Shown: positions 1,242 through 9,338, numbered from the stretch's first letter. The stretch: DNA of 9,672 bases from an uncultured Gemmatimonadota bacterium (GCA_964584035.1 CAZOYL010000101.1:1-9672); one strand, 5' to 3'. Numbers and translations: made by a program. The notes: generated by a model not told the origin, from the letters alone.

Positions 1242-1270
1242 TTGACAATCTCCTACAAATTTGGTATGAT
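1242..1270 (+). promoter_or_regulatory. Strong sigma70-type promoter of the candidate selenoprotein gene
   Basis: TTGACA at 1242-1247, 17-nt spacer, extended -10 TG-G-TATGAT (TATGAT at 1265-1270). Confidence 0.8.
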
Positions 1271-1322
1271 TATAGGGTGGGCTCGCTGAAGTCCGATGAT
1301 GACACTCACGACAGGAGAAAAA

Positions 1323-2687
1323 ATGATACCGGCACGCCAGAAACTCTTTTTAGCGATGATCCCGTTGATCGCCCTGCTAACAGCCTCTCCCGCCGCGGCC
1401 ATACACCTTCAGGATGCCTATGCCGAGGCCGGACCGGGAGAAGGGTACGACAAACTGGTGATCCTCGATCCGGGTGAGATATACACCGGCTATATGGTCG
1501 TGGATGGCAACACCAGCTGCGGCCTGCGCGGCAACGGAGCTTTGATCGTGCTGGACAGCGGCGCCCAGATCTGGGCCGGGAGCAGCTCCCGGCTGGACGT
1601 GGAAGGATGCATCATCACCGGGGGCAGCTACGGACTGAGCTTTGACTATACCAACAGCAGCGTGGTATCAAACTGTACCCTGACGGGCAACGGGGTGGGG
1701 GTGCGCACCTGGGTGGCCGATGTGATCGTCACCAACTGCATCATCGTCGACAACGATGAATACGGCATCTCCTGCCGGGAAGGCGCCGAGCCGACCGTCA
1801 TGTATAACGACGTCTGGGGCAATGGCGTGCTCAATTACGCTTCCTTCTGCCCCACCTGAGGCGGGGCCACGTGGGAGAGTTTCTCCCCCAACCCCGGCAC
1901 CGGCGAGATCAGTGACGATCCCCGGTTCTACGACCTTGAGTCCGGCAACTATAACCTGTCGACCGGCTCCCAGTGTATCGACAGAGGAGATCCCGACAGC
2001 CGGATCGATCCCGACGGCTCCCGCCTGGACATGGGCGCCCTGCCGACCTACAAGACGCCGCCCGAGGTCATCCTCATCCGACCTCAGCCCGCTCAACAGG
2101 ATGTTCCCCGACAGACGGCCATTCAGGCCACCTTCAATATGCCCATGGATCCCGGCACCTTCACCAGCGACCATGTGATCGTCTCCGGGCAGGGAGGAGA
2201 CCGCGGCGGAACGATCGACTATGATCCGTTGACTCATACGGTATCGTTCAGCCCGGATGAGCCCTTCCAGAGCGGAGAGACGGTATCGGTACAATTGACC
2301 AGCAGTCTCTCTTCGCTGTGGGATCAGACCCTGGCAGCCGACTACGGCTGGACATTCCAGATCAACACCAGCAGCGATGTGGTCGTAACCGATCCGATCG
2401 GCCTTCCCGACCGTTTCGCCCTGCAGCAGAACTATCCCAATCCCTTCAACGCCTGGACAACCATTCGATTCAGCTTCGAGACCTCCGGCCCGGTCACCCT
2501 GGGGGTGTACAACATGCTCGGACAGCTGGTGGAAACGCTGTATCGGGGGGAACTGCCGGCCGGTCAACACCAGATATCCTGGAACGGTACCGATCGGTCC
2601 GGCCGGCCTCTGGCCAGCGGCGTGTACTTCTGCCGCCTGGAGGCCGACAGCCGCAGCGAGATCAGGAGGATGGTGCTGTTGAAGTAG
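1323..2687 (+). CDS. Secreted protein, 454 aa with readthrough: signal peptide, right-handed parallel beta-helix, CxxU, Ig-like (Big_5-like) domain, FlgD-Ig/T9SS-type-A-like CTD. In-frame TGA 1857-1859 probably encodes selenocysteine (U179).
   Basis: ORFs 1296-1859 and 2031-2687 share a frame and the 57 codons between them have no stop. SD AGGAG at 1313-1317 supports ATG 1323. Signal peptide ends ...ASPAAA. Beta-helix repeats include NCTLTGN, NCIIVDN and YNDVWGN. After the TGA come DPRF, SQCIDRGDP and DGSRLDMGA. The C-terminus has LQQNYPNPFN and ASGVYFCRL..RRMVLLK, then TAG. Confidence 0.85.
1862..1896 (+). promoter_or_regulatory. Putative bacterial SECIS element directly 3' of the in-frame UGA
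   Basis: Lower stem CGGGG(1862-1866)/CCCCG(1892-1896), an internal loop, and upper stem GGGAGA(1873-1878)/TCTCCC(1882-1887). The apical loop is GUU, starting 19 nt after the UGA. Confidence 0.7.
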
Positions 2688-2722: not shown

Positions 2723-2750
2723 GGGGAGATCTTCGGATCTCCCCTTTTTT
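2723..2750 (+). terminator. Rho-independent terminator
   Basis: GGGGAGATC-TTCG-GATCTCCCC (9-bp stem, cUUCGg tetraloop) followed by TTTTTT. Confidence 0.93.
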
Positions 2751-2775
2751 ATTAAAAAGCCCTCCCGGTCACGAC

Positions 2776-2850
2776 CGGGCCGTGGCCAGCGGCGTGTACT
2801 TCTGCCGCCTGGAGGCGGGAGGAATGATCGAGGTGCAAAAGATGGTGCTG
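2776..2850 (+). pseudogene. Relic of the 3' end of a CTD-encoding gene (RAVASGVYFCRLEAGGMIEVQKMVL)
   Basis: 2783-2816 is identical over 34 nt to 2611-2644. GATGGTGCTG recurs at the same 172-nt offset (2669-2678 vs 2841-2850). No upstream part of a gene is present. Confidence 0.75.
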
Positions 2851-2868
2851 GAGCGGATACGAATCCAC

Positions 2869-5190: not shown

Positions 5191-6117
5191 ATGGGCATGA
5201 GGGTCATCGATAACCTGGCGATCAAGATCGGCGCCATCCTGATCGCCCTGTTCCTGTGGTTTCATGCCGTCACGGAGCAGGAATATGAGGTCAAGCGGGA
5301 GGTGCCCATTCAGATCATCGGAACGCCCGGAGATCTGATCCTGGCCGAGCCGATCCCCGATGAAGCCATTATTCGCCTGCGCAGCAAGGGAAAGCAGCTC
5401 ATCGTTCCCTACTTCAGTCCGATCCGTGTGCTGGTGCCGGCGGCCGGAGCAGAGAAGGGCCCTCTGACGGTGTCCTTGACCGGCGAGAACGTGGATGTCA
5501 CCCACGGGAACGGCGCTGCCCTGACCGACATCGTCTCGCCTCGCCGGGTCGAGCTGACCTTCGATACCCTGGTTCGAAAGAAGGTCCCGATCCAGTCCAG
5601 GATTACCCTGGAGCCGCTGGAGGGATACGTCCGGGTGGGCTCGATTACCTTCACTCCCGACAGCATCCTGGTTCTGGGACCGGACCGGTACGTCAGCTCG
5701 ATCGCCTCGGTGCTGACCGACTCGGTCAGTTATTCGGGAGTGAAAAAATCCGTTGTCGATCAGGTTCACCTGGTCGATCCCGAGGGATTTAACGTCACCT
5801 ACGTCCCTCATCAGATCGAGGCCCAAAGCCAGATCCAGCGTTTGGTGCAGCGAACGGTCGAGGGTATTCCGGTGACGCTGACCAACATACCCAGGGGCCT
5901 GTCCGCCCGCCTGGAACCGGGCACCCTTTCGGTGACCGTTTCCGGCGGAGAGCAATATCTCAATGCGCTGTCCCGGGATTCCTTCTCGGCCTTCGCCGAT
6001 TACGGCCGGGCCCGCCAGAGGGCCGACGCACGGATCAACGCCCGCATCAATCTGCCCCCCGAGGTGGAGCTGATCAGCGCCAGCCCCCAGACTTTCAAAG
6101 TGGTCACCGGAAGTTAA
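5191..6117 (+). CDS. CdaR/YbbR-family protein (single N-terminal TM, YbbR repeats)
   Basis: N-terminal DNLAIKIGAILIALFLWFHA anchor. Repeated beta-rich units such as KKVPI...LEGYV.....FTPDSILVLGP and PVTLTN.P.GL.ARLEP.TLSVTVSG. GGGAGA at 5175-5180. Confidence 0.85.
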   Translation: MGMRVIDNLAIKIGAILIALFLWFHAVTEQEYEVKREVPIQIIGTPGDLILAEPIPDEAIIRLRSKGKQLIVPYFSPIRVLVPAAGAEKGPLTVSLTGENVDVTHGNGAALTDIVSPRRVELTFDTLVRKKVPIQSRITLEPLEGYVRVGSITFTPDSILVLGPDRYVSSIASVLTDSVSYSGVKKSVVDQVHLVDPEGFNVTYVPHQIEAQSQIQRLVQRTVEGIPVTLTNIPRGLSARLEPGTLSVTVSGGEQYLNALSRDSFSAFADYGRARQRADARINARINLPPEVELISASPQTFKVVTGS

Positions 6118-7244: not shown

Positions 7245-7334
7245 ACTCTGTTATTGTTTCTGCAAATTCTGATGCGCCCAAAAGGGCGGCTTAAAATCCG
7301 TGACGACCTTTCTACCCAAAGGAGGGATGTCGAG

Positions 7335-9338
7335 GTGAAAACGATCCTTTTTTCACTGGCTCTGACGATCCTTGTGGCTCTGACGTGGTCCTCTCTGGTC
7401 GGCGCCGAGGGATTCGGTACGCCCGCCATGGACGGTATCCCCGATGGGGTCTATGGAACGCCCGAAGCTTCTGATCCAGCCGGGGACGGCGCCGGTAATG
7501 CCAACATGGATCTTCTCGAACTGTACGTGTGCAACGATGCTTCCTACTGGTATTTCTGTTTCACCATCAACGATGACATCAATGCCACGAACTGGGGTAA
7601 GTATTTGCTCCATATAGATATAGACGGTGTCAGCGGCTCCGGATCAACTGCCCCATCCTGGGCTCGATCGGTCACCTTCACCGACCCGCATCTGCCGGAA
7701 TACGGCCTCAACAGCTGGGTGGATAATCCGCCCTATGACCCCAGCCACACTCAGTTTTTTCATTACAATGGCAGCTGGTCCCAGTCCGGACAGGCGGATG
7801 CCGCCGTCCTCAACGCCGGCACGCCCTCCGGAATCGAGTGGAAGATCGAGAAGACCCGCATCGGCGATCCCGACTCGCTGTGGTGCGAGGTATTCAGCAC
7901 CGGCGGGGGCGACAGCGATAACGCACGAGACACCGCCAACGACCCGGCCGACGACTGGAACGGCACCGCGGGCGACTGGTCCACTCCGGCCACTCTGGCC
8001 CTGTCCACCCTGGTTCACTCCGTCAGCGGATCGGACGTCACCGCTCCGCAGGCGGTCAGCGCCGTGGCCACCGATTATACTCAGGTGAAGGTGATCTTCA
8101 ACGAGGCCATGAACGAGGCCTCGGCCACCAACGCCTCGAACTATACCATCCCCGGCCTCTCGGTGACGGCCGTCGACAAACTGGCCGCCGACAGCTACAG
8201 TCTGACCACCGACGCTCAGACCTACGGGACCCAATATACGGTGACGGTCGCCGCGGCGGTACAGGATCTGGCCGGCAATCCCATGGACCCGGCTCACGAT
8301 GAGGTCACCTTCTCCGGCTTCGGCGTGGCCCAGGTGACCTTCCTGGTGGACGACACCGGGGACATCAACTACGCGGCCGGCTTCAAGTTCAAGGGCAGCT
8401 GGGACACCAATCCGTATCACGCCTACGATCCCGGCTGGGGCCTGGGCCAGCTCTACGACTTGTACGACGACGGCACCCACGGCGACGCCGCGGCCGGAGA
8501 CCACATCTGGACCGCGATCCTGGACCTGGTGCCGGACGGCGGAACCAACAGCTGGCAGTGGGGCGTCACCCAGCCCTCCGGCGACTGGATCGACGGCAAC
8601 TGGACCTTCTCGGTGACCGACACCACCGACTTCGAGCTGACCTATGAAACCCCGGCGATGACCGAACAGGATGTGGCCGTGGTCTTCTCGGTGGATATGA
8701 GCGGTGAAACGGTGGCCATGCCCCTGATCATCTGCGGCAATACCGCTCCGTTGACCTGGACCTGGTCGCCGGACAATCCGGACACGCTCAACGATGAAGG
8801 ACTCAACGGAGACGCGGCGGCCGGCGACGACATCTGGAGCCTGACCATCACCTTTCCCACCGGGACACAGAAACGGGTGGAATACAAGTACGGCAACGGC
8901 GGGGCGGACAACGACCTGGGTTACGGCGTCAACCGCATCTTCTTCATCGACGACGTCAGCTATTCGGTCGGCAATCCCCAGGTCCTGCCGACCGACACCT
9001 TCGGGGTCCTCACCGGCGTGGAGGAATGGGACCGGACGGACGGCGCCCTGCCGGCAGGATTCTCGCTGCTGCCCAACTACCCCAACCCATTCAATCCGGA
9101 GACCGTCATCGCCTATCGCATCGGCCTGGACCGGACGGCCCCGGTGAGCTTGAAAGTATATAACCTACTGGGACAGCAGGTCCGCACCCTGTCCGAGGGC
9201 ATTCAGGCGGCCGGCGAATACCGGCTGGTCTGGGATGGCCGCGATGATGCCGGCCGGGATCTGTCCAGCGGGATCTATTTTGCGCGGCTGCAGGTGGGCG
9301 CGGCCGGGCAGTCCAGAAAACTGGTGCTGGTGAAATAA
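7335..9338 (+). CDS. Secreted multi-module protein (667 aa): DOMON/glucodextranase-like domain, Ig-like domain, two CBM20-like modules with 'choice-of-anchor X'-type Asp-rich loops, FlgD-Ig/T9SS-type-A-like CTD
   Basis: GTG at 7335 follows SD GGAGG (7321-7325) and gives signal peptide MKTILFSLALTILVALTWSSLVGA. Motifs: DPAGD...DLLELYV.ND..YWYF; DVTAPQ...FNEAM...VQDLAGN; LYDDGTHGDAAAGDHIW and LNDEGLNGDAAAGDDIW; VEYKY; NYPNPFNP...SSGIYFARL..RKLVLVK. Confidence 0.85.
   Translation: MKTILFSLALTILVALTWSSLVGAEGFGTPAMDGIPDGVYGTPEASDPAGDGAGNANMDLLELYVCNDASYWYFCFTINDDINATNWGKYLLHIDIDGVSGSGSTAPSWARSVTFTDPHLPEYGLNSWVDNPPYDPSHTQFFHYNGSWSQSGQADAAVLNAGTPSGIEWKIEKTRIGDPDSLWCEVFSTGGGDSDNARDTANDPADDWNGTAGDWSTPATLALSTLVHSVSGSDVTAPQAVSAVATDYTQVKVIFNEAMNEASATNASNYTIPGLSVTAVDKLAADSYSLTTDAQTYGTQYTVTVAAAVQDLAGNPMDPAHDEVTFSGFGVAQVTFLVDDTGDINYAAGFKFKGSWDTNPYHAYDPGWGLGQLYDLYDDGTHGDAAAGDHIWTAILDLVPDGGTNSWQWGVTQPSGDWIDGNWTFSVTDTTDFELTYETPAMTEQDVAVVFSVDMSGETVAMPLIICGNTAPLTWTWSPDNPDTLNDEGLNGDAAAGDDIWSLTITFPTGTQKRVEYKYGNGGADNDLGYGVNRIFFIDDVSYSVGNPQVLPTDTFGVLTGVEEWDRTDGALPAGFSLLPNYPNPFNPETVIAYRIGLDRTAPVSLKVYNLLGQQVRTLSEGIQAAGEYRLVWDGRDDAGRDLSSGIYFARLQVGAAGQSRKLVLVK

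Follow-up and report, generated by a model that had tools for sequence, protein, structure and literature searches.

A putative selenocysteine-containing beta-helix protein with a type IX sorting domain in an uncultured Gemmatimonadota bacterium

We analysed a 9,672-nucleotide (nt) stretch of DNA from an uncultured Gemmatimonadota bacterium (GCA_964584035.1, CAZOYL010000101.1:1-9672; hereafter the window), in which positions 1323-2687 very probably form one selenoprotein gene whose internal UGA is decoded as selenocysteine (Sec, U). This level of confidence covers the identity of the gene and its decoding, not the role of the resulting C-x-x-U motif. The string TGC CCC ACC TGA, on which the original prediction was built, is present at 1848-1859 and gives the residue context F-C-P-T-TGA-G-G; when this TGA is read as U, the frame continues as a single protein of 454 residues ending at a TAG stop, with the expected C176 and U179. 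A mechanical list of open reading frames (ORFs) breaks the same unit into 1296..1859 and 2031..2687, and the 57 codons from 1860 to the ATG at 2031 are free of stops, as had been claimed.

The TGA falls in one alignment column in all 15 gene copies that were read as DNA, which is more than chance would be expected to give. These copies comprise the window, 11 metagenome loci (L026-L036), a locus (L007) in genome G003, and second tandem copies in L031 and L032; they represent 14 different sequences that are 51-100% identical to the window. Aligned homologues with TGA at position 179 and conservation on both flanks, proposed as a check on the prediction, were thus found. The metagenome scan yielded 29 loci, 11 of which (L026-L036) match query residues 1-241, 5-241, 6-241 or 21-241 at 53-100% identity, and the TGA occupies one shared column in each of these 11. 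When the genome of the window (G000) and 60 related genomes were searched at the DNA level, a single full orthologue was recovered, in G003, a member of the same family but of another genus; it is 57% identical, contains one internal TGA, and reads ...NYALFCPG-U-GATWDAFSP. G002 holds an N-terminal piece that is cut at a contig end, and a scan of genome contigs yielded only the G003 contig again as a full orthologue. Across copies the motif takes the forms FCPT-U, YCPG-U, FCPG-U, FCDG-U, FCSG-U and FCFG-U, such that the C at -3 and the U are fixed while the two residues between them vary (PT, PG, DG, SG, FG). The second copies in L031 and L032 are approximately 54% identical to the window and have their own TGA, with motifs FCSG-U-GGGSWESF and FCFG-U-GGGSWESF.

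Public protein databases contain this family in the form of halves. P0126 (179 aa, 75% identical) ends ...NYAAFCPT and P0190 (204 aa, 51% identical) ends ...NYATLCSG, whereas P0003 (278 aa) begins MWESFSPSP, three residues past the site, and P0002 and P0125 are additional C-terminal halves; the anticipated truncation of database proteins at the motif is therefore seen from both sides. All of these entries are named "hypothetical protein" or are nameless, and protein searches returned no full-length close relative without a stop, the best full-length matches being P0004 (39-43% identical) and P0185 (39%).

One may postulate that the halves produced by gene callers are correct, and that a secreted beta-helix protein ends at 1859 while a second protein starts at 2031 or at some other start. 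We consider this scenario extremely unlikely. Nei-Gojobori estimates of the ratio of nonsynonymous to synonymous substitution (dN/dS) were obtained for 11 pairs among 11 aligned sequences, leaving out L026 (almost the window's own sequence), L034 (identical to L033) and the second copies, which were found later. Upstream of the TGA the ratio was 0.16-0.52 across the 11 pairs, in the 57 codons behind it 0.12-0.36 in ten pairs (in the eleventh, dS was too large to compute), and across the whole downstream part 0.14-0.42, and dS spanned 0.15 to values above 1. The stretch of 57 codons left non-coding by a two-gene annotation is under purifying selection, and it completes a motif block that is uninterrupted in all stop-free homologues. 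There is also no conserved start after the TGA (ACG TGG in the window and TTG TGG in L033), and the second half has a type IX secretion system (T9SS) tail with no signal peptide of its own. The ATG at 2031 encodes residue 237, the M of DMGA, which is kept almost without exception (in at least 90% of 24 aligned homologues) and is therefore an internal residue, as originally proposed; P200, S216, C218, D236, G238 and A239 are invariant in the same 24 sequences.

Flanking signals also agree with a single unit. The claim that one promoter, one Shine-Dalgarno sequence and one terminator bracket the gene was upheld, in that a promoter-like site, an AGGAG and a terminator-like hairpin enclose it (the hairpin itself spans 2723-2744), and the consensus scan placed no promoter- or terminator-like site between 1328 and 2722. 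A second, weaker promoter-like match lies over the gene start (1299-1327), and the region leading into the start is common to the orthologues (...GGEK-M or GG(K/R/S)-M). A change of the genetic code in which TGA is sense throughout was rejected because TGA ends four neighbouring genes at 592, 956, 4795 and 7175, as had been noted; the genes ending at 2687, 3477, 6117 and 9338 stop with TAG or TAA.

In principle, a frame could also be interrupted in this way in a pseudogene, by a nonsense mutation specific to the strain or through faulty assembly, and we regard these explanations as having negligible probability. Contigs from three of four public sequencing runs bridge 1857-1859 with no other letter there (the fourth, X4, has no cover at 1801-1953), and the same TGA recurs in all 15 copies across many assemblies. 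The frame is kept, and dN/dS downstream is well below 1 at dS above 1; a pseudogene or non-coding spacer would not give such low ratios on both sides of the TGA at this level of divergence.

The genome of the window, which is 91.7% complete, contains selA, selB, selC and selD, the set whose presence the prediction had made a condition. selA was identified at 463.5 bits with selB adjoining it on the same contig (region C140:112-5480), and the tRNA-Sec gene lies directly upstream of selD (C38:16996-18107). The selD gene itself has one in-frame TGA at its known Sec/Cys site (AAAG-U-AAK). Genomes G001-G003, all of the same family, likewise carry selA and a selD with TGA, and G003 thereby combines this machinery with the orthologue. 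A recoding of the UGA that does not involve selenium, either near-cognate or programmed read-through inserting Trp, Cys, Arg or Gly, or predominant termination giving a 178-residue periplasmic beta-helix, would also fit a conserved in-frame TGA with selection downstream. Sec decoding is usually inefficient, and some truncated product is expected. Nevertheless, the complete machinery, the U in selD, the use of TGA as an ordinary stop nearby, and the invariant C at -3 that gives a CxxU all speak for Sec, as does the hairpin described below, and we consider recoding without selenium very unlikely.

Other potential users of Sec in this genome were also surveyed. A 599-codon frame approximately 2 kb from selA contains an MvhD/FlpD-like domain, and a search for Sec forms of MvhD/FlpD and of molybdopterin enzymes in the genome found no stops within the matched parts. 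A rough genome-wide scan for other genes with an in-frame TGA returned mostly antisense frames, and 12 of the 15 candidates that were fetched matched no family and had a non-coding appearance. Plausible candidates were C16:18775-19602 (...IPT-U-PLCC, with a weak GRDB match at E 3.8e-4 and a hairpin of stem 8, loop GUG and spacing 18), C244:1606-2157 (a secreted protein, ...TTS-U-GPC) and C110:4156-5019 (a secreted protein with ...RCE-U close to its end).

Directly behind the UGA lies a hairpin that resembles a selenocysteine insertion sequence (SECIS). Its stem begins 13 nt behind the UGA and has 6 base pairs closed by a GUU loop, with a UGA-to-loop spacing of 19; the minimum free energy (MFE) is -20.5 kcal/mol for the extended element at 1857-1900 and -7.6 to -8.4 for the core. 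A model of the bacterial SECIS (bSECIS) specifies an apical loop of 3-9 nt, an upper stem of 4-16 base pairs, an MFE at or below -7.5, a G as first or second loop nucleotide, mostly followed by G or U, and a UGA-to-loop distance of 16-37 nt (PMC13188914); the window hairpin lies within all of these limits. A hairpin with this stem, loop and spacing was present in 12 of the 13 loci scanned, and both second copies have the same 15 letters at the same distance from the TGA. RNAalifold selected exactly the six pairs, one of which shows a double change from G-C to A-U in L033 and L035, while one pair is broken in L007. The loop G-U derives from the Ser codon AGT, which at 5.5% is the least used Ser codon among the long ORFs of the genome, yet AGT is used in all ten orthologues that have Ser at the loop position. 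Among 73 invariant columns with residues of at least four-fold degeneracy, a single codon is kept in nine, and all nine of these are common codons. Taken on its own, the RNA evidence for a SECIS is modest.

Decoding by SelB at the hairpin is well supported in silico. The ribosome would meet the UGA at 1857-1859, SelB carrying Sec-tRNA(Sec) would be recruited by the stem-loop that starts right behind it, Sec would be put in as residue 179, and translation would continue to the TAG at 2685. The product would then be exported to the periplasm through its Sec-type signal peptide from where the type IX system would deliver it to the cell surface or medium. Selenium insertion itself, the signal-peptide cleavage site and the surface location are steps that we infer.

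The domain content of the product is consistent with such a route. Its N-terminus, MIPARQKLFLAMIPLIALLTASPAAA, looks like a signal peptide, and it is followed by matches to Pfam Beta_helix (PF13229, residues 78-168, 47 bits against a cut-off of 25.9), NosD (36.6 bits, over the repeat region) and NCBIfam TIGR03804 (25.8 bits against 19.45). The sorting tail is additionally matched at residues 371-451 by Por_Secre_tail (PF18962, 28.6 bits against 27) and FlgD_ig (43.6 bits). The genome encodes a PorU sortase (708 bits against a cut-off of 420) and dozens of further proteins that end in this T9SS tail. Since a signal peptide and a sorting domain occur in one product, Sec export followed by T9SS delivery to the cell surface or medium seems probable, and because the part after the TGA has a sorting domain and no signal peptide of its own, this domain would make sense only in the fused protein.

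When the full structural model was searched with Foldseek, only Ig-like and sorting-domain matches were returned, PorU first, and for this reason the N-terminal domain was refolded alone (residues 27-245, 30 aligned sequences, Sec modelled as Cys). The resulting model is a short right-handed beta-helix with a mean predicted local distance difference test score (pLDDT) of 93.1 and a predicted template modelling score (pTM) of 0.91. C176 ends the last long strand (170-176), residues 177-182 (P-T-U-G-G-A) form a turn that directly precedes the closing segment, and a further strand follows; this predicted model agrees with the proposed placement of C176 and U179 on a loop where the beta-helix ends. 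The statement that this is not a thioredoxin fold held, as neither Pfam nor NCBIfam gave such a match and the model is all-beta around residue 179. VIA-align gave Z scores of 10.2-14.8 to 50 beta-helix entries (alginate and pectate lyases, tailspikes, AlgG, NosD), none of them prominent; Foldseek matches to the N-terminal domain were weak (best E 9.4e-4), and a sequence search of PDB chains with this domain gave nothing below E 0.07. Given that no family stands out, the beta-helix fold is generic and says little about function. The pectate-lyase-fold enzymes that share it, including PL6 alginate lyase 7dmk (Z 14.8), Pel9A 1ru4 (13.2), AlgG 4nk8 (11.7) and NosD 7o0y (12.0), form a flat list of unrelated proteins at 9-20% identity, such that the likeness to PL1, PL6 and PL9 is at the level of fold only. 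Identity as NosD was considered and rejected; the match spans only profile positions 36-126 of 212, and no nos genes lie alongside.

More distant homologues lack the TGA. No stop was found in the matched stretch of 18 weaker metagenome loci or of the 12 examined among 27 other genome loci, and the loop is variable there. In one alignment (A5) the Sec column is occupied by Cys in P0185 and by Asp in P0004, which has Cys at +1 and +3, and 12 distant homologues with a loop shortened by four residues have Gly there; in another (A1) P0185 has its Cys displaced by one column and P0004 has Cys at -1 and +1. The expectation that homologues would show Cys at position 179 therefore finds a counterpart in P0185 under A5, but not under A1, and protein searches gave no Cys form among close orthologues. 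The T9SS-sorted beta-helix proteins without Sec that most resemble the window protein come from metagenome-assembled genomes of candidate division TA06, Zixibacteria and Cloacimonadota (P0004, with cluster member MBI4725698.1, P0006 and P0009). They share with it the beta-helix repeats, YNDVWGN, P.PGTGE, DP.F...SPCID.GDP...DMGA and the T9SS tail at 30-43% identity, but differ in having no in-frame stop and a loop that either lacks four residues and has Gly in the Sec column or has one or two Cys nearby; most of them also have no Big_5 domain.

Several observations weigh against the interpretation of this gene as a selenoprotein with a functional C-x-x-U. Shuffled sequences fold as well as the 60 nt that follow the UGA (z 0.13), just one hairpin pair shows a double change, and synonymous variation near the hairpin, at 0.53 bits compared with a gene mean of 0.82, is reduced yet is not the lowest window of the gene. 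L007 is without the common hairpin and offers only another candidate at a spacing of 34, and when the entire window was compared with Rfam, allowing E up to 10, the matches were two tRNAs and chance hits, with no SECIS family. The classical Sec/Cys criterion appears to hold only in part. The sequencing runs found include no RNA run listed as containing the stretch. In the model, the loop block has a pLDDT of only 79 and was folded with Cys in place of Sec, and no neighbouring gene hints at a function.

The role of the motif is less certain than its existence. The usual reading of C-x-x-U is a selenylsulfide redox pair (PMC13188914), and here an exposed pair of selenolate and thiolate may form a selenylsulfide reversibly and act on extracellular sulfur, selenium or thiol compounds, a proposal that we place somewhat short of an even chance. 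The same selenoprotein might instead use C-P-x-U-G as a metal knuckle, in which case the selenolate and thiolate would jointly hold a soft metal or metalloid (Cu(I), Hg(II), As(III), Zn) on the cell surface; we view this alternative as somewhat less likely. C-P-x-C-G is the knuckle consensus of rubredoxins and zinc ribbons, and a faint Pfam match to Zn_Ribbon_Prim covers residues 172-194 (below cut-off at E 0.12). In the model, the motif occupies a strand-turn-strand rather than at a helix N-terminus as in thioredoxin folds, and close orthologues have no Cys form, both of which fit a knuckle. Metal-linked selenoproteins with CxxU or UxxC are on record, e.g., a putative mercuric transport protein and a metal-binding protein listed in PMC13188914. 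However, this is a single knuckle with no other conserved Cys/His pair shown nearby, the P of C-P becomes D, S or F in some copies, and no metal-handling genes lie alongside.

The original prediction also did not recognise the protein among described selenoprotein families, and this impression persisted. Table 1 of the 2026 review (PMC13188914) gives 119 families and subfamilies with no beta-helix, Ig-like or T9SS-sorted protein, and the 11 NCBIfam matches obtained at E up to 1 include no selenoprotein family. Nothing relevant on helix, T9SS, secretion or NosD was found in the text of this review, the deep-Sep paper or the BSepDB paper, and no relevant paper came from a literature search that paired selenoproteins with a beta-helix, T9SS/type IX secretion or pectate lyase. 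The family is accordingly regarded as undescribed within the searchable literature, which does not take in the BSepDB family table. Its nearest analogue is the TonB-dependent receptor FCYXU-type selenoprotein (NF049945), which is likewise a predicted bacterial, extracytoplasmic protein with F-C-x-x-U on a beta-rich scaffold other than thioredoxin. That receptor is an outer-membrane beta-barrel and has Cys homologues according to its paper, whereas the window protein is a beta-helix and has none close, and NF049945 was absent from the 11 NCBIfam matches. CxxU selenoproteins with thioredoxin-like or AhpD-like folds (SelW-like PF10262, AhpD-like, GrdA) have the same C-x-x-U spacing, but the window protein has its motif in a strand-turn-strand rather than at a helix start, and it combines a beta-helix with an Ig domain and a T9SS tail.

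Table 1. Coordinates of the selenoprotein gene and associated features in the window.
Feature	Position	Strand	Basis
Promoter-like site TTGACA-17-TATGAT with TG extension	1242..1270	+	Consensus scan, 11/12 matches; pattern match only
Shine-Dalgarno-like AGGAG	1313..1317	+	Read from sequence; 5 nt 5' of ATG at 1323
Probable selenoprotein gene, 454 codons + TAG	1323..2687	+	Annotation would split: 1323-1859, 2031-2687
Putative signal peptide, residues 1-26 (...SPAAA then IHLQ), cleavage inferred	1323..1400	+	Sequence; low pLDDT at 1-24
Short right-handed parallel beta-helix, residues 27-200	1401..1922	+	Pfam, model, structural alignment
Cys176 codon of C-x-x-U	1848..1850	+	TGC in 11/11 aligned orthologues
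TGA, probable U179 (selenocysteine)	1857..1859	+	TGA in 15/15 gene copies; Sec machinery in genome
SECIS-like element: lower stem + upper hairpin GGGAGA-GUU-UCUCCC (1873-1887)	1860..1898	+	Fold, covariation, published criteria
Closing segment DP.F...S.C.D.G...DMGA, residues 199-239, holds Met237	1917..2039	+	24-sequence alignment
Big_5 bacterial Ig-like domain, residues 244-346	2052..2360	+	Pfam PF13205, 56.1 bits
T9SS type A C-terminal sorting domain, residues 371-454	2433..2684	+	TIGR04183, 38.2 bits (cut-off 23)
Terminator-like hairpin + T run	2723..2754	+	Consensus scan
Putative relic: final 24 codons of a deleted second tandem copy (ASGVYFCRLEAGGMIEVQKMVLER)	2785..2856	+	Compared with second-copy ends in L031, L032, L036

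The orthologous loci are syntenic, with the order conserved unnamed gene, DUF3098, selenoprotein gene, DUF4416 and radical SAM; in the window the neighbours are tRNAs, DUF4416, radical SAM, YbbR and TsaD. The genes for tRNA-Val(tac) and tRNA-Asp(gtc) lie at 1002-1173 on the plus strand, directly 5' of the selenoprotein promoter. Across L027-L036 and L007 the flanking genes are 65-96% identical to those of the window (unnamed gene 88-94%, DUF3098 65-91%, DUF4416 73-92%, radical SAM 80-87%), compared with merely 50-89% for the selenoprotein halves, and in L036 the neighbours reach 87-96% against 53-58% for the selenoprotein gene. These comparisons indicate that the selenoprotein gene evolves faster than its neighbourhood. 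A second T9SS-sorted protein is encoded at 7254-9338 on the plus strand (694 aa, TTG start, Big_5), and its tail is 42-52% identical to those of the selenoprotein copies.

The tandem arrangement itself appears to be variable. The second copies are located at L031:4720-6177 (TGA at 5347) and L032:1927-3189 (TGA at 2359), the latter apparently frameshifted near its 5' end, with a signal peptide in another frame just upstream of 1927. The genome of the window seems to have lost a second tandem copy, as the segment 3' of the terminator resembles the T9SS tails of the second copies in L031, L032 and L036. In sequencing run X3 a contig departs from the window at 2644 and continues with letters matching this relic, a hint that the population includes a recombinant form.

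Because gene callers cut the protein in two in every public entry found, the family is invisible to surveys of selenoproteomes, and its description would add a fold (beta-helix, Ig domain and T9SS tail) and a location (type IX-secreted) that are absent from the 119-family prokaryotic catalogue. It would provide a target for metaproteomics of salt-marsh sediments, a small and well-folding domain for biochemistry (219 residues, pLDDT 93), and a natural set of SECIS variants from a little-studied lineage. Fixation of Sec in a family without close Cys counterparts is unusual, and therefore points to a real need for selenium. More speculatively, this may be the first selenoprotein to travel as type IX cargo, an arrangement in which uncultured sediment bacteria would display a surface selenolate on a carbohydrate-enzyme-like beta-helix and would have fixed Sec for chemistry that sulfur cannot perform outside the cell; we consider this broader scenario rather unlikely. 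If it were true, the protein might, for example, capture soft metals (Hg, Cu) from sulfide-rich pore water or handle polysulfide or selenium, and its faster diversification, together with tandem duplication and loss, would be as in surface proteins under pressure.

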